A stretch of DNA of 64,000 nt from an uncultured delta proteobacterium (GCA_963848135.1 CAWKCK010000017.1:1148538-1212537), one strand, 5' to 3'; shown: positions 1 to 13,707, numbered from the stretch's first letter. Translations and numbers: made by a program. Notes: generated by a model not told the origin, from the letters alone.

Positions 1-3000
1 TTCCACACCCCTGGCACATAAGCGGGTTAACGATCACCTTCTGCTGATCGACATCCAGCATGCGGGCGCCGTAAGGACAGGCATCGATGCACCACTCGCA
101 AAGACTGCAGAGACTGTGACGCACAAGGGCGACAACTTTGCCGGCCGGCAGGTTCTTGCGGTTCAGGATTCGCAGGGAGCGTTGGGCCGCGGCCTCGGCG
201 GTGGCGATCGATTCGGCGATCGAACGGGGCGAATGTGCCAGACCGCAAGCGAAGACGCCCTCCTTGAGCGCATCGACCGGTCGCCACTTCGACTCGGCTT
301 CCTGGAAGAACCCATCCATGTCGCGGTCAATTCCATAGGTGGTAGCAAGATCGGCCGGAAAATTCGGAAGAACGCCCGTGGCCAGAACAAGCAGATCGGT
401 GCTGATCTCGATCTTCCGGCCGATGATCGGTTCGAACACGCTCACCGTTACCGCGCCTTGGTTGATTGCGACCCGCGGTTTGCTTTCCGGACTGTACTGG
501 ATGAAGTCGATGTCGCTTTTGCGCGCCTGGGTGTAATAAGTCTCCGCAAAACCATAGGTCATCATGTCGCGATACAGGACATACACGGCGATGTCTGGAT
601 TCTGCGCTTTCATCTGCAGAGCGTGCTTGAGAGCAGACGCGCAACACACACGGCTGCAGTAATTGCGCGGTTCTTCGCGCGAGTCGACACACTGGATCAT
701 GACCACGTTGTCGAGGCCATGAGGATCGATGGAGCGGTCAGCCAATTTCTGTTCCAGTTCCTTTTGGGTGATGATGGCCGGACAGGTGCCGAAACCGTAT
801 GATGTCGTGGGAGCCTCGTCACCGCCGGTGGCCAGAATCGTGACGCCGTGCTCGAGTGTCTCGACCTTGCCCTCCGGATTTTCAATCGTCGTGTAAAACT
901 GCCCCACATGTCCATAGGCGGCCACAACACGGTTGCCGGTGCGGACCGACACCAGCGGATGTTTATCCACCCTCTGTTCGGTTTCTGCCAGCAAGTCCGG
1001 GATCGCCTGCCCCTCTAATGTCTGTTTGAGCCAAATCAGGTTGCCACCGAGTCGATCGGCCTTCTCGATGATCTCCACCGGGAACCCGTGCTCGGCGATC
1101 GCCAGGGCCGCCGTCATGCCAGCAATACCGCCCCCCACCACCAGGGCGCACTGCTGAATCGGCACCGACACCGTCGGTGACGGATCGATGCGCTTCAGGC
1201 GGGCCAACCCCATTTCCAGTAAAGAATGCAGGCGGTTTACTGAGGGGCCGACTTTCGCCTGGGACGGCTGCACGTCGGCGTCCGGCGCCACGTTCAGCGA
1301 GCGGATATCCACCACGTCCATCAAAGACGGATAAAGGCCGACTTCTCGGGCCAACTGTCTGATATTACGGGCATACACATACGGCAGGCAGGCACCGATC
1401 AGAACCCGATTCGGCTGGCGGCTCTTCACACGTTCGACCAACTCATCCCATCCCGCGGCTGTACAGGTTCTGTCGATGACCTCCACCCCCACAACCATTG
1501 GATCGGCAGCCACCTGCCTTCTCAGGTTATCCACCACAGAGGCTTCCGCCAGGGTCCCGTCGCAGGCACAGATAATGACAAGGATTTGGGGCACCTCCCG
1601 CGAAACGTCTCTCAACGTTGTCTCGGTTTCTGGCTCGGGAGCCAGCCCGCCGCCGGCGCCGTGAATGGTCCGCGAGGCCGCAAGCGCAGCAGCGGACGCC
1701 TGCGTGACCGATTCGCCGATGTCCTTCAACCCTGAAAAAGAGCCCCCCAGCAGAACCCCGTCACGCGACGTTTGCGTGAGAGAAAACGGCACCGTCTGTC
1801 CAAAGCCCCAGCTGTTTAAAGGGATGTCGAGCATCTCGGCCAATGCCACCGAACCGGCCGCCGGTCGCTGCCCGACAGCCAGGACCACCATGTCCTGACG
1901 GGATTCATGCACATGGCCACCGGTGTCGACATATCGGATGATCAGGTCGCCGCTGCCGTCGTCATGCATCACCGAATGAACCCGTCCCCTTTCGAAACGG
2001 ACGCCACATTCGGCTTCCGCCCGATCGCGGTAGCGCTGGAACGGCTTCCCGAAGGTGCGCATATCCATGTAAAAAATAGTGGTTTCGAGAGCACCGACGG
2101 TTTTCTCCCTGGCCACAACGGCTTCTTTGATGGCCGTCATGCAGCAGATATTGGAGCAGAAATCGGCATCGGACTGCAGGTCTCGCGAGCCGACACATTG
2201 AACCCAGGCCACCTTGCGAACCGGCCGCTCATCCCCAGGTCGCACCAGGCGGCCGTCGCTGGGGCCGGTACCGCTGAAGATCCTTTCGAACGCCAGGCTG
2301 GTGACGACCCCCGGCAGGATGCCGTAGCCGAAAGTGTTTTTGCCTTGCGAGGGATCGTAATAAGACGTCCCGCCGCACAGCACCAGGGCGCCGACGTTCA
2401 GACGGCGTCCCTTGGTAGCCTCCACATCCTCATAGATCCTGAGGATCATGGGTATCAGCTTGTCCGGATCGAAAGGTTTGACCAAGTAGTCGAAGGCACC
2501 GGTTTTCATGGCCTCGACGGCGGTCTCCACCGTCGCATAGGCCGTCATCATCACCACACACAAATCGGGGTAGACCTCCTTGGCTTTTTGCAGAACTTCC
2601 ACTCCGTCCATGCCGGGCATCTTGATATCGGTCAGCATGAGGTGATAGGCACCGTCGGCCAACTGTTTCAGCGCAGCGGGCCCGGATTCGGCCATATCGA
2701 CCGAAAACCCCTCGTCTTCGAGCCAGGCCTTCAAGGAGTCACGCACAATCAGTTCGTCGTCCACCACCAGAATGCGGAATGTCTTGCGTTCCTGCTCGGA
2801 AAGCCGGATGGCAGCGGTCGGACACACAGTTTCGCAAGCACCACAGCGGGTACAGGCGCTGAAATCGATTACATACGGGTTCGGTATGGCGTGAGGCACC
2901 GGCAGGTAGATGGCTTTACGGCTGGCCATCCCGAAGTTGAAGGCGTCCGGGACCGTCACCGGACAAACCTTCGCGCAGTCGCCGCACCCAATGCACAGCG

Positions 3001-3346
3001 CCGGATCCACCCAGCTCGGTTTCTGGCGCAGCATCACTTCGAAATTGCCGGCCTCGCCCTCTATGGATATCAGTTCGGTGGACAGCAGAATCTCGATGTT
3101 TTCGTGGAACAATCCCTTGCGGAGGCAATACTGGGAAGATGCGTCGCGATCGACTAACGGCAGCATCTTGCACATGCCGCAGCGATCCGTGGGAAACTGA
3201 TAGTCCAACTGACTGAGAATCCCGCCCAGATGGGGTGCACGGTCGATCAGAGTGACCCCGTATCCGGTTTCGGCCAGATCAAGTGCCGCACGAATGCCGC
3301 TGATGCCGGCACCGACAACCAAAGCGCTTCCAATTTTCCTTGGCAT
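1..3346 (-). CDS. hdrA: Tandem (double FAD-domain) HdrA-family flavoprotein with an inserted response-regulator receiver domain; 3' end beyond window (at least 1115 aa)
   Basis: Manual translation from ATG 3346 (GGAGG RBS): MPRKIGSALVVGAGISG, FPTDRCGMC, CIGCGDCAKVCP, CTRCGACETVCP, then REC (RILVVDDE...LTDIKMPGMDG...MMTAY...LVKPF), QCVGSRD..CSNICCM, second GGGIAG, QCVDSRE..CSRVCC, C-terminal CSLCEWCIDACP/CQGCG. Start and end are in the same frame and the ORF track shows no stop-terminated ORF in it, so it is open to position 1. Confidence 0.93.
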   Translation of the reverse strand, partial: MPRKIGSALVVGAGISGIRAALDLAETGYGVTLIDRAPHLGGILSQLDYQFPTDRCGMCKMLPLVDRDASSQYCLRKGLFHENIEILLSTELISIEGEAGNFEVMLRQKPSWVDPALCIGCGDCAKVCPVTVPDAFNFGMASRKAIYLPVPHAIPNPYVIDFSACTRCGACETVCPTAAIRLSEQERKTFRILVVDDELIVRDSLKAWLEDEGFSVDMAESGPAALKQLADGAYHLMLTDIKMPGMDGVEVLQKAKEVYPDLCVVMMTAYATVETAVEAMKTGAFDYLVKPFDPDKLIPMILRIYEDVEATKGRRLNVGALVLCGGTSYYDPSQGKNTFGYGILPGVVTSLAFERIFSGTGPSDGRLVRPGDERPVRKVAWVQCVGSRDLQSDADFCSNICCMTAIKEAVVAREKTVGALETTIFYMDMRTFGKPFQRYRDRAEAECGVRFERGRVHSVMHDDGSGDLIIRYVDTGGHVHESRQDMVVLAVGQRPAAGSVALAEMLDIPLNSWGFGQTVPFSLTQTSRDGVLLGGSFSGLKDIGESVTQASAAALAASRTIHGAGGGLAPEPETETTLRDVSREVPQILVIICACDGTLAEASVVDNLRRQVAADPMVVGVEVIDRTCTAAGWDELVERVKSRQPNRVLIGACLPYVYARNIRQLAREVGLYPSLMDVVDIRSLNVAPDADVQPSQAKVGPSVNRLHSLLEMGLARLKRIDPSPTVSVPIQQCALVVGGGIAGMTAALAIAEHGFPVEIIEKADRLGGNLIWLKQTLEGQAIPDLLAETEQRVDKHPLVSVRTGNRVVAAYGHVGQFYTTIENPEGKVETLEHGVTILATGGDEAPTTSYGFGTCPAIITQKELEQKLADRSIDPHGLDNVVMIQCVDSREEPRNYCSRVCCASALKHALQMKAQNPDIAVYVLYRDMMTYGFAETYYTQARKSDIDFIQYSPESKPRVAINQGAVTVSVFEPIIGRKIEISTDLLVLATGVLPNFPADLATTYGIDRDMDGFFQEAESKWRPVDALKEGVFACGLAHSPRSIAESIATAEAAAQRSLRILNRKNLPAGKVVALVRHSLCSLCEWCIDACPYGARMLDVDQQKVIVNPLMCQGCG

Positions 3347-5375: not shown

Positions 5376-8300
5376 TCATCGTCCCACCTTGGCGATGGCA
5401 TCCATGATGCCGTCGATCTCTGCAAAGATCTGCTGGCTTTTGAAATGTCGGCTGCGGGCGGCATCGCTGGGACAAAACCCGGAACAACTCCCGCATCCCT
5501 TGCAAACCGCCGGATTCACTTCGGACACCCCCGTGCGCTCGTTGAATTCAATGGCACCATACGGGCAGAGACCGATGCAGACCTGGCAGCCAATGCAGAT
5601 ATCCGGATCGATCCACGAAATGGTGGGCGGCACCTCGACCTTACCGAGTGTTGCCAGGGACAGGGCCTTGGCGGCCGCGCCTGACGCCTGGGAAACCGTA
5701 TCCGGAATGTCCATCGGCTTTTGGCAGCACCCGGCCAGGAAAACCCCGTCGGTGGCCGTGTTAAGGGGTCCCAGCTTGGGATGCTCTTCGAGGAAAAATC
5801 CATCGGCACCCTGGTTGACGCCGAAAAGCCTTCCGATGTCGCCGGCATCACTGCGCGCCTCTATGGCGGTGCACAATACCACCATGTCCACCGGCACCCG
5901 CACCCGGCGACTCAACAAAGTGTCTTCAGCAATGGCGATCAATTTACCCCGCTCTTCGGGCCGCATGGCCTGGTCGGTGATCTCGGCAACTTTGCCCCGG
6001 ATGAAAATCGTGCCCTCTTCCTGGCAACGGCGATAGAATTCCTCGTACCCTTTGCCGAAGCAACGCATATCGATGTAAAAATCGTAGACTTTGGTGTCAT
6101 GACCGACTTTTTCCTTGATCAAATGCGTGTATTTCAACGCATACATACAGCACACTCTTGAACAATATTCGTGGTAATTGACATCGCGGCTGCCGATGCA
6201 ATGCAACAGGGCCACACTCCGGGGCGACCGTGTCAACGCGCCGTTCTCGTCTCGAATCCGGATTTTCCCTCCGGTAGGACCGGTGGCATTGCTCAGGCGC
6301 TCAAACTCCAGGGCCGTAAAAACGTTGGGGTAGACGCCGTAACCAAAAGGTTTCATCGGCGTTGGATCCATAGTGTCATAGCCGGTGGCCAGGATGATAC
6401 TGCCCACTTTGACCTGAACTTCCTCCTCCCGCATTCCGTGATCGATGGCAACCGCTTCGCAGGCGCCCACACACGCCATACAGTCGCAGCAAATACCGCA
6501 GTTCAGGCAGCGCCGGGCCTCTCGACGGGCGTCGGCTTCCGTGAAGCTGCGATCGACCTCGGCAAAAGAGCCAACCCTTTCGGTGGCTTCCAAATGACGG
6601 GATTGCAGGCGCATTTCCGGACCAATGTTGCGGGGAATGTCTGCCCAATCGGTGCCGGGCAGCGGCCGCATCTCCATCTCGGCGGCATAGGCGTCCAGGT
6701 CTTCCCCGTCGATGAAACGCTCGATCGCCGCCACCGCCTTGTGGCCGGCCGCCACCGCCTCGATCACCGAGGCCGGACCTGAAACCACATCGCCGGCCGC
6801 AAACACATTCGGAATCGAGGTTTGCATGGTGTGCGGATGAACCCGGATCGTGTTGCGTCGGGTGGCATCGATTCCGGAACTGTCCGCCGCCCAGTTAAGA
6901 TCGATCCTTTGGCCGATGGCCGGCAGGACCGCATCGCACGCCATTACGAATTCGGAGCCTTCGACTGGCACGGGGCGTCGTCGCCCGCTGGCATCCGGCG
7001 GGCCGAGTTCCGTCCGAATGCACTCGAACCCAGTTACACGTCCGTCCTTCCCGACAATCCGCAACGGGGCGGTCAGGTAATGAATTTGCACGCCTTCGGC
7101 CAGGGCATCCTGGATCTCCTCAGGGTAAGCCGGCATTTCTTCACGGCTGCGCCGATAAACGATCGCCACCGATTCGCTCCCCAGGCGCTTGGCGACCCGG
7201 GCTGCATCCACCGCCACATTGCCGCCGCCGATGAACACGACCGTGTCTCCGGGGCGCCTGCGGGATCCCAAATTGACTTCCCGCAGGAAATCGATGGCAT
7301 TGGTTACCCCGTCAAAGTCGTCTTCCCCCGCGATGCCGGTGCCGAGGCCCAGGTGGGCACCGATGGCCAGAAAGACAGCGTTGAATCCCTGTTGCTCGAG
7401 ATCCGTCAAAGTGAAATCACGTCCCAGCCGTTTTCCAGTTTGAACCTTTATTCCATGGCGTAGGAGATGGTCGATCTCACGGTCCAGAATATCGGGGGGT
7501 AGGCGATAGTCCGGTATCCCAACCCGGAGCATGCCGCCCAACACCTCGAGCGCCTCGTAAACAGTAACTTGGTACCCTTTCAACCTCAGGTAATATGCCA
7601 CCGTCAATCCGGCCGGTCCGGAACCGACCACCGCGACCTTTTCCTTGCGCTCGCTGATCGCAGGCAGGGGCAGTTCGGACAAATCGACCTGGTCGGCGGC
7701 AAAGCGCTTCAAGTTGCGGATGGCGACCGCCGTATCGATCTCCGCCCGCCGGCACTGGGTCTCACAGGGATGCGGGCACACCCGCCCGAGAACACCGGGC
7801 AGCGGCAGCCGCTCCATGATCAATTGCACGGCCTGCCTGTATTTGCCCTGGCCGATCAGCTGGACATACCCCTGGACATTGATACTGGCCGGACAGTTCG
7901 TCACACAGGGCGCGCGGTCTTTTTTTTCGATATTGAAGGTAATCGGAATGGCCTGAGGGAAAGCCCTTCCGATGGCTTTGCGCTCCCCCAGCCCCACATC
8001 CCATTCATTGGGCAGTGAGACCGGGCAGACGTTGACGCACTCACCGCAACCGGTACAAATACCCTCTTTGACGTAGCGCGGTTTTCTGTGGATGGTGGCG
8101 GTATAGTTGCCGATGTATCCGGAAACCTCTTTGACCTCGCTGTAGGACAGCAGCTCGATGTTTGCATTCTGGGCCACTTCGACCATTTTGGGGGTACCGA
8201 TGCAAGCGGCGCAGTCGAGGGTGGGGAAGGTCTTGTCGAACTGGAGCATGTGCCCACCGATGGTGGTCCCTTTTTCTACCAGATACACCTTGTGCCCGGA

Positions 8301-8786
8301 ATTACCGATATCGATGGCGGCCTGCATTCCGGCTATCCCGCCGCCAACGACCAGCATGTCGGGATAGACGTCGGCCTTACGGGTTTCGAGGCTTTCGTGA
8401 TAGTTGACCCGGTTAATGGCCGCGGCTGTCAGGCTCTTGGCCTTGGCTGTGGCATCGTCTTCGTCTTCGGTGACCCAGGAGACCTGCTCCCTGACGGAGG
8501 CCATCTGGAAGTAATAAGGGTTCAAGCCGGCCCGCTGGCAGGCCGCCATGAAAGTTTTGGCATGCAAACGGGGCGAACAGGAAGCCACCACCACCCGGTT
8601 GAGACCGAAGTCGTGGATGTCTCTTTCGATCATGGCCTGGCCCGGATCGGAGCACATGAATTTGTAATCGCGCGCCACGACGACATTTTGTAATTCACGC
8701 GCGAATGCCGCCACTTCCAAGACCCGCACCTTGTGCGCGATGTTGATCCCGCAGTGGCAGATGTAAAATCCGATTTTTATTTGCAT
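5376..8786 (-). CDS. hdrA: HdrL-type heterodisulfide reductase A with an inserted GltD/NfnB-like NAD(P)H oxidoreductase module
   Basis: ICHCGIN, FMCS, SCSP, GGGIAG, FPTLDCAAC; insert PCVTNCPA..GRVCPHPCE..GSGPAG..GGGNVA; HCIGSRD..CSRVCCM; C-terminal two 4Fe-4S motifs. Confidence 0.92.
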   Translation of the reverse strand: MQIKIGFYICHCGINIAHKVRVLEVAAFARELQNVVVARDYKFMCSDPGQAMIERDIHDFGLNRVVVASCSPRLHAKTFMAACQRAGLNPYYFQMASVREQVSWVTEDEDDATAKAKSLTAAAINRVNYHESLETRKADVYPDMLVVGGGIAGMQAAIDIGNSGHKVYLVEKGTTIGGHMLQFDKTFPTLDCAACIGTPKMVEVAQNANIELLSYSEVKEVSGYIGNYTATIHRKPRYVKEGICTGCGECVNVCPVSLPNEWDVGLGERKAIGRAFPQAIPITFNIEKKDRAPCVTNCPASINVQGYVQLIGQGKYRQAVQLIMERLPLPGVLGRVCPHPCETQCRRAEIDTAVAIRNLKRFAADQVDLSELPLPAISERKEKVAVVGSGPAGLTVAYYLRLKGYQVTVYEALEVLGGMLRVGIPDYRLPPDILDREIDHLLRHGIKVQTGKRLGRDFTLTDLEQQGFNAVFLAIGAHLGLGTGIAGEDDFDGVTNAIDFLREVNLGSRRRPGDTVVFIGGGNVAVDAARVAKRLGSESVAIVYRRSREEMPAYPEEIQDALAEGVQIHYLTAPLRIVGKDGRVTGFECIRTELGPPDASGRRRPVPVEGSEFVMACDAVLPAIGQRIDLNWAADSSGIDATRRNTIRVHPHTMQTSIPNVFAAGDVVSGPASVIEAVAAGHKAVAAIERFIDGEDLDAYAAEMEMRPLPGTDWADIPRNIGPEMRLQSRHLEATERVGSFAEVDRSFTEADARREARRCLNCGICCDCMACVGACEAVAIDHGMREEEVQVKVGSIILATGYDTMDPTPMKPFGYGVYPNVFTALEFERLSNATGPTGGKIRIRDENGALTRSPRSVALLHCIGSRDVNYHEYCSRVCCMYALKYTHLIKEKVGHDTKVYDFYIDMRCFGKGYEEFYRRCQEEGTIFIRGKVAEITDQAMRPEERGKLIAIAEDTLLSRRVRVPVDMVVLCTAIEARSDAGDIGRLFGVNQGADGFFLEEHPKLGPLNTATDGVFLAGCCQKPMDIPDTVSQASGAAAKALSLATLGKVEVPPTISWIDPDICIGCQVCIGLCPYGAIEFNERTGVSEVNPAVCKGCGSCSGFCPSDAARSRHFKSQQIFAEIDGIMDAIAKVGR

Positions 8787-8818
8787 GACCAACCCTATGA
8801 TGGCTATGGACTTTCAGG

Positions 8819-9262
8819 CTAAACCCACTCCTCCGTATCTTCCAAACACTCGCCCGTGTGGGTTAATGAGTGAATAAGCTGCAAGAGTTCATCCGCTTCC
8901 GGCGGTTTTTTCAGGAATGCCTCCGGCTCGGGCATCGCCCCGCCCGAAGCCGATCTCTTGCATTTGAGGTAGTGAAAACAGGTCTTGCGATCAATGGTAG
9001 AGAGCATAATGACCGGAATGTTTTTTAGCTTCTGGTCGGCTTTTAGTTCTCGATACAACAGGGTATGGCTGCCATGATTCCGGATCACGTCGATGATGAT
9101 CAGGTCGGGATCTTCGTCGATGACTTCCTGATAGGTCTCGGAATCACCCTCGGCAATTACCGGCTGGAAACCCCGTGTCTGCAACAAATTGCAGAGGAAG
9201 ATCTGCATCTCCGGTTCGTCGCCTAAAATGAAGATTTTCTTCCGCACAAGTTCCGGAGCCAA
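8819..9262 (-). CDS. Stand-alone, partly degenerate response-regulator receiver protein
   Basis: KKIFILGDE, PDLIIIDVI, IPVIMLST, FLKKP; TTG start after AAGGAGG. Confidence 0.8.
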   Translation of the reverse strand: MAPELVRKKIFILGDEPEMQIFLCNLLQTRGFQPVIAEGDSETYQEVIDEDPDLIIIDVIRNHGSHTLLYRELKADQKLKNIPVIMLSTIDRKTCFHYLKCKRSASGGAMPEPEAFLKKPPEADELLQLIHSLTHTGECLEDTEEWV

Positions 9263-9355: not shown

Positions 9356-9372
9356 TGCATGTTATATGCCGT
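9356..9372 (-). promoter_or_regulatory. sigma-54 (-24/-12) promoter of the hdr operon
   Basis: Minus strand acGGcatataacatGCa (GG-N10-GC) about 95 nt before the first gene, with an AT-rich IHF-like tract upstream. Confidence 0.65.
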
Positions 9373-9945: not shown

Positions 9946-11679
9946 ATGTCCAATCCCAAAACCACACCTAAAAGTAATTCTCTATCTGATGGCGATGGAA
10001 TCATTGCTTTGGATCGATCGCTGAAAATTATGAGCTGCAACCACGTTGCTACCGACATATTGGGCATAGAACTCGAACCCCGGGATCAATTCCCATTGAA
10101 GACGATTTGCGACAAAACTTCCTCGAGAAAATTGGAAACGGCATTGCGCCTTACTATCGATAAAGGGCGATCATATTCAGGGCTTAAGCTTCATCATTCC
10201 GATGCAAATGGCACCGAGAGTCGCATGATTCTCTCAATACAACCCCTCTATAATCACCCGAAAAATATCATTGGCGCCATCCTCTCGATTCAACCTTTTG
10301 TTCCCAGCAATGAACGATCCAATACGGACCTTCCGGATTCCGAATTCGCGTCGAGTGGAGATATTCCAATACATGAAGAATTATTGGAATCAATGCCCGA
10401 GGGCATTTTCACCATCAACACCCGCTGGCGCGTCGCAACTTTCAATCGTCAGGCCGAAAAAATTACGGGATTTAGACGCGAAGAGGTCATTGGCCGTAAT
10501 TGTTGGGAAATATTTCGTTCCGACATGTGCCACACGGGATGCCCTTTGCAAATCGCGCTTGAAACCGGCCGGACAAAAATGGACCAGGATGTCCGTATTC
10601 TGAATAAGGGCGGAACACACCTGACGATATTGGTTAACGCTGGAGTACTGAGGGATTCAGACGGTTTGATCGCAGGGGCAGTGGAAACCTTCCGTCCTTT
10701 GATGGGAGAGATCTGTTCCTCGCAACATCAGCAGAAAGGAACTTATTTTGCCGATATCGTTGGCCGGAGTGGTGTGATGCAGCATATTTTTTCCATGCTG
10801 CCAAGCATTGCTGCCAGCGATGCCAATGTGCTGATTTCTGGGGAAAGCGGAACCGGCAAAGATCTTATCGCCCGCGCGATTCATAACCACTCTCCTCGTT
10901 GTCAAAAGCCATTTGTCGCTGTCAATTGTTCGGCTTTGGCAGAGACCCTTCTTGAATCCGAATTATTCGGCCATGAAAAATCAGCCTTCACGGGCGCAAC
11001 CAGCCACAAAACAGGCCGTTTTGAACTGGCCAAAGGCGGCAGCTTGTTTCTGGATGAAATCGGTGAACTTAAACCGGAGCTTCAAATCAAGTTGCTGCGT
11101 GTTTTGGAAAACCGCGAGTTCGAGCGCGTCGGTGGCACCCAAACCATACCGATGGAAGCGCGCATTGTCAGTGCCACAAATAGAGACCTTCGCCAAGCCA
11201 TTTCTGATGGGCATTTCCGGAAAGATTTTTACTATCGTCTGCGAACGGTCCCCATCGCTGTTCCACCGCTGCGTGAACGCATGGATGATATTCCCCTTTT
11301 AATAGAATATTTTATCAAACGATTTAATGCACGCTATGACAAACGGGTACTATCGATCCATCCGGAGGTAATGCAAAAATTCATGAAATACCACTGGCCT
11401 GGCAATGTCCGCGAGCTGGAACGCACCTTGGAACATGCTTATGTGTTTGTTAAAGGACCGGTAATTCGGGCTCTCGATCTACCGGCACCAGAGGAATTTC
11501 AATCATTTACTAGGGAACCAACCGGATCCGAACCTGCAGCCGATAAAGGAACCAGCATAGAATCCATCCGTTGGGCCCTATCGCGCGCGGCTGGTAACCG
11601 CAAGGCGGCCGCCAGTCTTCTCGGCATTAGTCGCACGACCCTATGGCGTCATATGAAGCAATTCGGCATTGATACTTAA
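9946..11679 (+). CDS. PAS-PAS sigma-54-dependent activator (Cx8Cx3C PAS motif)
   Basis: [42 protein letters not shown], Fis [14 protein letters not shown]. Confidence 0.93.
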
Positions 11680-11988: not shown

Positions 11989-13707
11989 ATGGTTAGCACC
12001 CTTCAAGAGCATGCTCCGACTGCCGAAAAACAATCCGGTGTTCTGGCGCTTTCCAAGACATTCTCCATCATGAGTTTGAACCAGGCTGCCAGGCATATAC
12101 TGGGATGTGAACGTGTGCCGGGAGATTTTTGTCCGTTGGATAAACTATTTTCAAACGCCAATTTAGACGAGGCCCGCATCGCTGTTAATGATGTTTTGGC
12201 AAATGGGCACCCTCGCAAAAACCTTACTGGAATAATGGTACATTCAAACGGCAACACCATCCCATGCCATTACTCCGCCATGCCCCTATTCGAACGGTCT
12301 CGCAAAATCATCGGTGTCATTATAAATTTTCAAGGCCTGGTCTCTACAAAGGCATCTGCCGCTCACCATAAAGCCCGCCAGCCGCTCACCTACATGCCCC
12401 GGCTGACCTACCACAGGTTGGTGGAAGAATTACCGGAAGGATTGTTCACCATCGACGCGAACTGGAAAATAACAAATTTTAACCGTGCCGCTGCAGCGAT
12501 CACTGGATATACAAGACAGGAGGCCCTGGGGCGACAGTGCTGGGAAATATTTCGTTCAGCAGAATGCCGTAAGAAATGTCCGATGCGCGTGGCAATGGAT
12601 CGTGCGCAACCCCAAACCGAGATAGAGATCGTAACACTTACCCGCTCTGGTCAGCGTCAAAATCTCATCGTCAATATCGGTCTTTTTAAAGACTGCAGAG
12701 GCAAGGTTTTGGGCGCAGTGGAAACATTTCGTCCCATAAATAATGACCCGCCGGCCGACATTCGAAAAAAACACCAGTTAGATGGCATCATTGGCGAGAG
12801 CCCGAACATGCAGCGCTTATTTGACATGCTGCCAGATGTGGCGGCCAGTGATGCCAATGTCCTCATCTGTGGTGAAAGCGGAACCGGAAAGGAGCTCATA
12901 TCCCGGGTAATCCATGATCTGTCTCCTCGATGTCGTCAGCCATTTATCGCCGTTAACTGTGCCGCCTTACCCGAAACGCTTCTGGAATCGGAGCTGTTCG
13001 GGCACGAAAAAGGAGCCTTCACTGGTGCAGATCGAACAAGGATCGGCCGATTTGAATTGGTTGGCAAGGGGACGCTATTTCTGGATGAAATTGGCGAACT
13101 TCGACCGGAACTACAAGTCAAATTGTTACGGGTGATCGAGCAACGATCCTTCGAGCGGGTTGGCGGAACGCGGCCCTTGAATTTTGAGGGACGAATTATC
13201 AGCGCCACCAATCAAGATTTACTGGACGCGCTTTCGGAAAAACGATTTCGTGAAGACCTGTACTACCGATTGCGGACCGTTCCATTGACCATTCCATCTT
13301 TGAGAAACCGTGTTGAAGACATACCCCTTCTCACCGAACAGTTTATTAAAAAATTCAACAAAACAACCGGCAAATGTGTCCGATCCGTCGACCCAAAAGT
13401 CATGACCTTGTTCGCGAATTATCCATGGCCTGGGAATGTTCGCGAACTTGAACGCTGCATCGAGCATGCGTTTGTATTCGTCAAAGGGCCGGTCATTTTT
13501 GAGCGACATTTACCCGATCCACACGAGTTTAGACAGCAGGGAGCGACACAAGGAATGCCACTCCCCTTAGGTTTGAATCCCAACGACAAAAAAAGCGTTG
13601 TGTGGGCACTGACAAAAACCGCCGGCCGGCGGCAGGAAGCGGCTGGTCTTCTGGGGATTAGTCGGACATCGATGTGGCGGCGCATGAAGAGATACGGATT
13701 GTTCTAA
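11989..13707 (+). CDS. PAS-PAS sigma-54-dependent activator, paralog of 9946-11679
   Basis: [39 protein letters not shown]. Confidence 0.93.

Follow-up and report, generated by a model that had tools for sequence, protein, structure and literature searches.

A receiver domain in the ferredoxin-arm hinge of a tandem HdrA flavoprotein, a candidate phosphorylation switch for electron bifurcation

Introduction

Could a two-component system control flavin-based electron bifurcation by acting on the bifurcating enzyme itself? The question is raised by a gene at the left edge of a 64,000-nucleotide stretch of DNA from an uncultured delta proteobacterium (GCA_963848135.1, CAWKCK010000017.1:1148538-1212537), the whole of which we call the window. 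This gene, hdrA(REC), encodes a tandem HdrA flavoprotein with a complete phospho-receiver domain inside its first HdrA unit. An earlier note, made from the sequence of the window alone, had pointed to this arrangement and suggested that a kinase could gate electron flow after translation, or that the redox state of the enzyme could feed into two-component signaling.

Flavin-based electron bifurcation is central to the energy conservation of anaerobes living near the thermodynamic limit, and its known regulation is transcriptional, or intrinsic by conformational gating. Here we describe the receiver and where it sits in the enzyme, the distribution of the fusion and the kinases encoded beside it, and we weigh a phosphorylation switch against other explanations for the domain.

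Results

The receiver domain and its conservation

The reading frame of hdrA(REC) is open from position 3346 to position 2 on the minus strand and continues past the window's edge. The complete gene, in a genome of 6.03 Mb in 18 contigs, encodes 1145 residues, the final 30 of which lie with the stop codon past the left edge (Table 1). Residues 192-301 match the Pfam family Response_reg (PF00072) far better than chance would allow (E=5.1e-31; score 107.6 bits, cut-off 30.2; profile positions 1-110 of 111), and the resulting span of positions 2444-2773 is close to the 2425-2780 given in the earlier note. The catalytic quintet and the aromatic switch are all present: D196 and D197 of the acidic pocket, the phospho-acceptor D240 (codon at positions 2627-2629), the switch threonine T268, K290, and Y287. 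The signaling motifs that had been quoted are likewise found, VVDDE at residues 194-198, LTDIKMPGMDG at 238-248, MMTAY at 266-270 and LVKPF at 288-292. The nearest receivers in the PDB are FleR (7w9h, E=3e-21), FixJ and NtrC; the nearest NCBIfam receiver models are AtoC and NtrC, with scores far under their cut-offs.

To follow these residues we used a single alignment over the ferredoxin domain, the receiver and the return to the domain that binds flavin adenine dinucleotide (FAD), containing 127 homologs and the query. From 272 proteins, 92 shorter than 900 residues and P0001, a window-truncated copy of the query, were removed; 128 of the remaining 179 were used, the other 51 being HdrAs that lack the receiver (REC-less) or unrelated receiver proteins. 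D196, D240, Y287 and P291, the residue after the lysine, are kept in all 128 sequences, and D197, T268 and K290 in 127 each; the refuting case named in the earlier note, homologs that do not conserve the aspartate, threonine and lysine, does not hold. Averaged over columns, conservation reaches 0.83 in the receiver and 0.79 in the ferredoxin domain, the set consisting mostly of closely related sequences (receiver identity: median 79%, minimum 25%). In the nine most divergent members, conservation is highest in the active-site loops (0.81-0.93), followed by the strands (0.67-0.80), by helices alpha1, alpha3 and alpha4 (0.64-0.70) and by alpha2 and alpha5 (0.43-0.44). Judged by this pattern, the receiver chemistry is under selection.

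The tandem HdrA that carries the receiver

A phmmer search against the PDB matches hdrA(REC) to the HdrA chain 8rvv_A at E=3.5e-114. The alignment to solved HdrA spans all domains of the protein: HdrA residues 142-310 fall on residues 7-185, 315-497 on 315-499 and 465-642 on 966-1144. Pfam finds FAD Rossmann matches at residues 8-41 and 735-770. On these alignments the protein is a covalent pseudo-dimer of two HdrA units that divide the accessory domains between them. Unit 1 holds the sole inserted ferredoxin domain along with the receiver; the N-terminal domain and the C-terminal ferredoxin domain are found only in unit 2, whose FAD domain has no inserted ferredoxin domain.

We scored the invariance of cysteines and glycines across 79 aligned relatives. 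G12, G14 and G17 of the unit 1 Rossmann motif are invariant, as are C118, C128, C165, C168, C171 and C175 of the inserted ferredoxin domain (where C121 and C124 are conserved in 90% or more of the rows), the unit 1 cluster cysteines C384, C397, C401 and C402, and, in the unit 2 region, C886, C897, C901, C902, C1080, C1083, C1086, C1090, C1111, C1114, C1117 and C1121. The protein has the FAD Rossmann motif, the four-cysteine signature, and the inserted and C-terminal 2x[4Fe-4S] ferredoxin domains of an HdrA, and in its own genome MvhD, HdrC and HdrB genes are all neighbors. A tandem HdrA with intact cluster cysteines, as had been claimed, is therefore what the alignment over all domains and the invariant or nearly invariant cysteines show, and the cluster signatures lie where they should (QCVGSRD at residues 383-389, CSNICC at 397-402, QCVDSRE at 885-891 and CSRVCC at 897-902). 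The NCBIfam models for CoB-CoM HdrA (NF041778, NF041891 and NF040770) score 530, 521 and 668 bits, whereas their cut-offs are 1400, 1300 and 1100, and the protein stays under the cut-off of every NCBIfam model. By these scores hdrA(REC) is HdrA-like and not the methanogen enzyme.

The insertion site

In the alignment to 8rvv_A, the four-residue link of canonical HdrA (residues 310/315) is replaced by 129 residues comprising the receiver and two linkers. The insertion point is where the inserted ferredoxin domain rejoins the FAD domain; this places the receiver between the ferredoxin domain and the FAD-domain return, in which the VGALVL strand of the earlier note occupies residues 318-323. The text of PMC13518236 describes the inserted ferredoxin domain of canonical HdrA as the low-potential exit, which carries the low-potential electron. 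The spacing from C175 to D196 is exactly 20 residues in 127 of the 128 sequences, and that from K290 to G326 is exactly 35 residues, also in 127, the sequence of the C-side linker itself being variable.

The genome encodes seven other tandem HdrA paralogs (L002-L008, on contigs C5, C7, C12 and C18), 36-40% identical to hdrA(REC) and without a receiver. They match residues ~3-189 and ~314-1115 back to back, and the receiver is therefore a clean insertion, present among these copies only in hdrA(REC). Six of the seven paralogs also have one in-frame TGA in their N-terminal part, possibly encoding selenocysteine; hdrA(REC) has no TGA, and its C56 and C59 are invariant.

AlphaFold2, run on the 79-row alignment, predicts the protein with a mean pLDDT (predicted local distance difference test) of 87.4 and a pTM (predicted template modeling score) of 0.86. 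The receiver is modeled as a (beta-alpha)5 fold, with strands at residues 191-195, 215-219, 236-240, 263-268 and 284-289 and helices at 199-211, 223-231, 247-258, 273-282 and 294-311, at a block pLDDT of about 70-89 over residues 191-310, a confidently predicted receiver fold. Helix alpha5 ends at residue 311, and a FAD-domain strand, 314-318, begins two residues on. In the CheY fold both termini lie opposite the phosphorylation site, which would suit an insertion that leaves the active site free. A Foldseek comparison with the PDB returns HdrA chains on top and then flavoproteins of the thioredoxin-reductase type; among the matches listed, none has a receiver inside such a fold. Spacing and model together indicate that the receiver is spliced rigidly into the hinge of the ferredoxin arm, with linkers of fixed length.

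Distribution and history of the fusion

A word-indexed search with residues 110-420 against NCBI, JGI, ENA and Logan returned 3409 proteins at E<=1e-3. The best 120 of these all carry PF00072, and most are 1129-1175 residues long. Among representatives at 50% identity, eight full-length proteins of 1134-1175 residues contain the contiguous segment, down to 41% identity. The databases name the fused proteins "heterodisulfide reductase subunit A", "FAD-dependent oxidoreductase" or "response regulator", one of those with the last name being from Desulfonema magnum. Two shorter representatives, P0130 (576 residues) and P0132 (664 residues), contain the segment from ferredoxin domain through receiver to FAD domain and stop close to where unit 1 gives way to unit 2 (near query residue 550); instead of fragments, these could be split HdrA-REC forms with a single unit.

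Of 401 genomes sampled from the window's order, 182 carry the fusion at E<=1e-70, nearly all with one match; it occurs in 137 of the 278 high-quality genomes and 88 of the 174 genera of that sample. A phylum-wide sample of 401 genomes at least 80% complete yielded nine carriers: the window's own genome, three more of the same order and five outside it, the farthest 44% identical. Related loci are assigned to Desulfobacterales, Desulfobacteraceae, Desulfococcaceae, Desulfosalsimonas, Desulfotignum and Desulfobacula. The concern that the fusion might be confined to one assembly is settled by this survey. An artefact of assembly or gene calling, whose likelihood we consider negligible, would have to contend with a frame that is unbroken in the genome, with PF00072 in the best 120 homologs from several databases, with the 182 carrier genomes, single-contig ones included, and with public metagenome contigs that cross both the ferredoxin-to-receiver junction (X1 record 6, X5 record 28) and the receiver-to-FAD junction (X1 record 4, X5 record 25). 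The artefact explanation is excluded. Among public sequencing runs, none contains half of the sampled words; the best share is 0.29, and that of the sole RNA library is 0.04; contigs from this library are ~90% alike over parts of the gene, come from relatives and are no evidence of transcription in the window's strain.

We built a FastTree phylogeny with the receiver columns masked, using 79 rows, 64 of them fused proteins and 15 hand-picked REC-less tandem HdrAs. In this tree, which is midpoint-rooted only and has several long branches, the fused proteins form essentially one clade, with REC-less P0192 as its sister and P0143, which has a degenerate receiver, branching first. The tree suggests that the fusion arose once and was lost at least once.

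The operon and its surroundings

The minus-strand order of genes is a 147-residue receiver-like protein, HdrL, MvhD, a FrhB/FdhB-like protein, hdrA(REC), HdrC-like, HdrB-like (with two CCG domains), a 779-residue kinase and a 398-residue REC-HATPase protein; the last four genes sit just beyond the window. The HdrL-type protein, named after PMC2702500, scores 538.6 bits against a cut-off of 516 with the NAD(P)-binding NCBIfam model PRK12771. The small receiver-like protein gives 28.1 bits with Pfam Response_reg, under the cut-off of 30.2, and a similarly sub-cut-off 56.7 bits with the DVU0259/DivK-like NCBIfam model.

Pfam finds no DNA-binding output in any of the three receiver-bearing proteins of the operon. 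Beyond the operon's first gene lie two sigma54 activators, and similar PAS-PAS-sigma54-activator genes recur near the operon in other genomes. We looked in them for a hidden receiver and can rule one out, as their N-terminal parts are PAS domains; the N-terminal part of the first activator has no sequence match in the PDB (the second was not searched). Since the operon's receiver proteins have no DNA-binding output and the activators have no receiver, HdrA is the only non-kinase enzyme left as a possible output. A sigma54-like -24/-12 element, GGCAT-N5-ATGCA, lies at about 9356-9371 on the minus strand, 109 nucleotides upstream of the first operon gene. It has three mismatches to the sigma54 consensus, and matches with at most two mismatches number 30 in the window against 20.1 +/- 4.5 in shuffles; a sigma54 promoter is therefore not established here.

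Table 1. Features of hdrA(REC), its operon and related loci (window positions unless a locus or contig is named)
Feature	Position	Strand	Basis or remark
hdrA(REC), tandem HdrA with inserted receiver	2..3346	-	residues 1-1115 inside the window
Unit 1 FAD-binding Rossmann motif, residues 8-41, GAGISG	3224..3325	-	Pfam Pyr_redox/DAO
Inserted 2x[4Fe-4S] ferredoxin domain, residues 113-181	2804..3010	-	Pfam Fer4; aligns within HdrA 142-310
N-side linker, residues 182-191, ferredoxin domain to receiver strand beta1	2774..2803	-	
REC (CheY-like) domain, residues 192-301	2444..2773	-	Pfam Response_reg PF00072
C-side connection, residues 302-317, alpha5 end to FAD-domain return strand	2396..2443	-	
Remainder of unit 1 thioredoxin-reductase-like FAD domain, QCVGSRD...CSNICC	1637..2395	-	aligns to HdrA 315-497
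Unit 2 HdrA N-terminal domain, about residues 586-720	1187..1591	-	query 586-762 aligns to HdrA 1-171
Unit 2 FAD domain (GGGIAG; QCVDSRE...CSRVCC) and start of C-terminal 2x[4Fe-4S] ferredoxin domain	2..1150	-	
FrhB/FdhB-like iron-sulfur protein, 380 residues	3482..4624	-	Pfam FrhB_FdhB_C + Fer4; directly upstream of hdrA(REC)
MvhD/FlpD-type subunit, 143 residues	4690..5121	-	Pfam FlpD E=1.3e-53
HdrL-type protein, 1138 residues, HdrA with inserted GltD/NfnB-like NAD(P)H module	5376..8792	-	Pfam Pyr_redox_2, Fer4_20
Small stand-alone receiver-like protein, 147 residues, first gene of the operon	8819..9262	-	Asp58 at the expected acceptor position
Two divergently transcribed PAS-PAS-sigma54-activator-HTH genes, 577 and 572 residues, without receiver	9946-11679, 11989-13707	+	Pfam
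HAMP-PAS-PAS-HisKA-HATPase kinase, 779 residues	L009:8403-10742; genome C17:1144402-1146741	-	just left of the window
Paralogous cassette of the same genome: REC-PAS-HATPase (669 residues), heme-motif kinase (757 residues), REC-HATPase (394 residues)	L116:2833-11629; genome C17:268832-277628		

The kinases

In the operon kinase, two hydrophobic, putatively transmembrane segments flank an outer domain of ~155 residues. Two cysteine-histidine motifs lie in this domain, CxxCH at residues 128-132 and CX3-4CH at about 171-177, each present in 10 of 10 orthologs, among which the H-box is nearly invariant; it matches PF21563 at 24.4 bits, under the cut-off of 27, and these features suggest a periplasmic sensor of the c-heme type. 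The kinase core is nearest AtoS in NCBIfam. The REC-HATPase protein has an intact receiver and an H-box-like sequence, SISHGIKG. When HdrA residues 1-585 were modeled together with two chains of the kinase DHp segment (residues 520-612), without controls, the predicted complex scored 0.00, which is neutral on binding.

We examined synteny in two sets of loci, which may overlap. The first comprised 16 loci (L010-L025), in 15 of which a fused gene was found; in L025 no complete one was seen. In 9 of the 11 loci with enough downstream DNA, hdrA or hdrCB is directly followed by an ortholog of the kinase sensor domain (56-64% identity), the exceptions being L014 and L024. In L023 the kinase ortholog region (L023:10281-12593) has two stop codons over the tblastn range and the REC-HATPase is also in pieces; this kinase may be frameshifted or a pseudogene. 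The second set took 20 genomes, one per family, and has a sensor-domain ortholog within 12 kb downstream in 14, on the same strand in 13 and, in L111, inverted and cut by the end of the locus. It is missing from L098, L102, L103, L104, L108 and L112, an absence made unreliable in L102 and L104 by 100-N scaffold gaps. Of the 14 loci with a sensor-domain ortholog, 13 have a REC-HATPase after the kinase. Over all 20, the fusion is preceded by MvhD and the FrhB-like gene in 18 and followed by HdrC and HdrB in 16, and hdrL is preceded by the small receiver in 11. In L098 (G146:C1:8006386-8026370) the fusion is flanked only by hdrCB, with no HdrL, MvhD or FrhB-like gene upstream and no kinase downstream. 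Five genomes without an adjacent kinase include four that encode one elsewhere and one, G040, in which none was found.

Ten genomes scored as fusion-negative and kinase-positive show where else the kinases occur. Five (L118, L123-L126) have a paralogous cassette of small receiver, REC-PAS-kinase, kinase and REC-HATPase; L119, L121 and L122 have kinase and REC-HATPase with no hdr genes; L120 has HdrB directly upstream of the kinase; and G011 (L117) does have the fusion gene after all, truncated where the contig stops. A paralogous cassette is also found in the window's own genome, where it adjoins NuoF-like (643 residues) and NuoG-N-terminal-like (218 residues) genes, with genes for a Usp protein and for an HdrD-like protein (Fer4+CCG) nearby. 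We considered whether this cassette accompanies a second receiver-fused redox enzyme and rejected the idea, as the NuoF-like and NuoG-like genes have no receiver. Identity does not separate Hdr-linked from paralogous kinases, which are 60-67% identical to both copies of the window's genome. Since the paralogous cassette is found in this and other genomes, the kinases are, by gene content, a cassette that can be reused, and the Hdr operon has its hdr genes placed within that cassette.

Discussion

A competent receiver in the hinge of the ferredoxin arm, two kinases in the operon and no other output make a phosphorylation switch the best explanation of this locus. The kinases are encoded directly downstream in the same operon, which makes the earlier suggestion of kinase gating concrete. 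We propose that HdrL, MvhD, the FrhB-like protein, the tandem HdrA and HdrCB would form a cytoplasmic Hdr-type complex, by homology a bifurcating or confurcating machine that joins NAD(P)H, ferredoxin and a disulfide acceptor. Asp240 would be phosphorylated by the membrane kinase with the heme-motif outer sensor, by the REC-HATPase as a second kinase, or by both. The switch of the receiver (T268, Y287 and the alpha4-beta5-alpha5 face) would then shift or stiffen helix alpha5, and this change would reposition the ferredoxin arm relative to the flavin. Such a shift would turn the low-potential branch, and hence bifurcation, on or off post-translationally. Conformational flexibility of HdrABC is described as gating electron transfer in the text of PMC13518236. 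We put at about even the chance that the receiver is a target of the operon kinases and that they gate the low-potential branch in this way; phosphotransfer, the identity of the donor kinase, the direction of the effect and the substrates of the enzyme are all parts that we infer. More tentatively, a whole two-component cassette without transcriptional output (heme-type sensor kinase, receiver-activated kinase and small receiver) might be wired to the bifurcating machine and relay periplasmic redox or acceptor status to Asp240, so that within seconds the complex could change over from bifurcation to confurcation or to an idle state and back; we find this extension conceivable but rather doubtful.

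Several observations weigh against a phosphorylation switch. REC-less P0157 (1021 residues) cleanly lacks the insertion, yet the tree places it among the fused proteins, next to P0124 as its sister (support 99). It is likely a secondary loss of the receiver, and it implies that the enzyme can manage without one. The early-branching P0143 (1155 residues) has a degenerate pocket, with D197P and K290H, though it retains D240, and alpha5, through which we propose the signal would pass, is weakly conserved in sequence (0.44 in the nine most diverged members). Co-occurrence speaks for the switch, as the kinase family is found in 152 of the 182 fusion genomes of the order and in 58 of the 219 in which no fusion was found, with neither detected in 161 genomes, but these genomes are related and not independent, which inflates the statistic and leaves an association only. 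In the other 30 fusion genomes the kinase family was not found, and G040, at 94% completeness, carries the fusion with no kinase of the family found. In G146, a gap-free single contig of 8.03 Mb, fusion and kinase share the contig but, assuming that it is circular, lie ~91 kb apart. Other genomes have the kinase cassette and no fusion, and the window's own genome has a second copy of the cassette away from the Hdr operon. Bifurcation by this bacterial tandem HdrA complex is itself argued from homology only, and phosphorylation of its receiver is putative.

The signal might instead run in reverse, as the second suggestion of the earlier note had it, with the redox state of the adjoining [4Fe-4S] clusters or the flavin altering how readily the receiver gains or loses phosphate. 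HdrA would then be a cytoplasmic redox sensor or a phosphate sink in a branched phosphorelay of histidine kinase, REC-HATPase and small receiver. Two kinases and three receivers with no classical output are what a branched relay with a sink receiver usually looks like, the cassette functions in other places with no HdrA, and a rigid linkage to the ferredoxin domain would carry conformational change both ways. We nonetheless think this improbable: the conserved operon shows no downstream effector to read such a relay, a plain sink needs no insertion of fixed length at exactly that hinge, and the small stand-alone receiver already takes the usual sink role. It is also conceivable, although unlikely in our view, that the receiver controls assembly, dimerizing or docking through its alpha4-beta5-alpha5 face to recruit or free partners (HdrL/MvhD/FrhB-like protein, HdrCB or ferredoxin) or to drive oligomerization. 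Receivers of the NtrC/AtoC/FixJ class act by phosphorylation-dependent oligomerization, and the HdrA receiver is nearest to that class. Complex composition also varies, with no hdrCB beside the fusion in L011, L012, L017, L019, L022, L096 and L105, and alpha4 is moderately conserved (0.70). Against assembly control, the invariant linker lengths and the continuity from helix to strand favor coupling within the molecule.

We give still less credence to a structural role, in which the domain would never be phosphorylated and would serve as a spacer or scaffold for the ferredoxin arm. The P0143 lineage has lost two pocket residues and yet keeps the domain, and the cassette kinase goes undetected in some fusion genomes, both of which a pseudo-receiver would accommodate. 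Pseudo-receivers usually lose the aspartate, threonine and lysine, whereas here these are kept almost without exception, the active-site loops are the most conserved part of the domain, and kinases are linked at most loci. The phosphorylation switch therefore remains our preferred reading.

If this reading is correct, cells could throttle or reverse a bifurcating complex post-translationally in response to an external or periplasmic signal. Should the more tentative relay from a periplasmic sensor also hold, it would be the first case in which a two-component system controls electron bifurcation after translation, and marine Desulfobacterales would have in it a general switch for managing energy. 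Roughly half of the sampled members of this order, which are major marine sulfate reducers and hydrocarbon degraders, carry the fusion. The receiver aspartate also offers a handle on how movement of the ferredoxin arm gates bifurcation. Redox enzymes of ~1145 residues that databases label plainly as response regulators are hidden from both fields.

The fusion joins two known kinds of protein, the HdrA flavoprotein and the response regulator with an enzymatic output. Full-text literature searches, which took in passages of PMC5109826, PMC6491731, PMC10553843, PMC12054007, PMC4046663 and PMC3333781, found no paper that describes or characterizes a receiver-HdrA fusion, in agreement with the earlier statement that no characterized example was known. 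With canonical HdrA (Mvh/Vhu/Fdh-HdrABC; PDB 5ODC, 7BKB, 8RVV/8RVU) the protein shares the thioredoxin-reductase-like FAD domain, the four-cysteine signature, the N-terminal domain and both the inserted and the C-terminal ferredoxin domain, and as in the canonical complexes MvhD, HdrB-like and HdrC-like genes adjoin it. It differs in having two units in one chain, with the accessory domains divided between them and a receiver inserted; its host is also bacterial, so the physiological disulfide substrate would not be CoM-S-S-CoB. The gene order matches that of locus VIII of Desulfobacterium autotrophicum HRM2, where tandem hdrL and hdrA4 are followed by hdrC/hdrB orthologues, with an fdhB-like gene (PMC2702500), a correspondence with the window's operon that is drawn from the description and not from the HRM2 sequence. 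The Fig. 4 legend of that paper includes "response regulator", "histidine kinase" and "CheY-like regulator" genes, and no mention of a receiver inside HdrA4 was found in its text, though its figures and supplementary Fig. S3 might show one.

The receivers closest in sequence are those of NtrC, AtoC, FixJ and FleR, from which hdrA(REC) differs in having no AAA+ or DNA-binding output. The CheB methylesterase, the PleD/WspR diguanylate cyclases and RpfG are response regulators with enzymatic outputs, in which a kinase controls activity without transcription. Like them, hdrA(REC) has a canonical phospho-receiver covalently tied to an enzyme. Their receivers are N-terminal, joined by a flexible linker to an output that acts on signaling molecules or chemoreceptors, whereas here the receiver lies within the fold of a redox enzyme, held by two short fixed linkers, and the output would be energy-conserving electron transfer. 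The outer domain of the operon kinase, with its CxxCH motif, resembles the c-heme sensors of Geobacter class-40H chemoreceptors (PF21563, a family that we take to be tied to periplasmic c-heme sensor domains), to which its match is weak and sub-cut-off; the output here is a histidine kinase, and heme attachment is putative. Two-component control of an Hdr-containing energy operon in a sulfate reducer has a precedent in Desulfovibrio vulgaris, where the text of PMC3333781 describes transcriptional control of flxABCD-hdrABC by the DNA-binding regulator DVU2394. The difference is that in hdrA(REC) the receiver is built into the enzyme.

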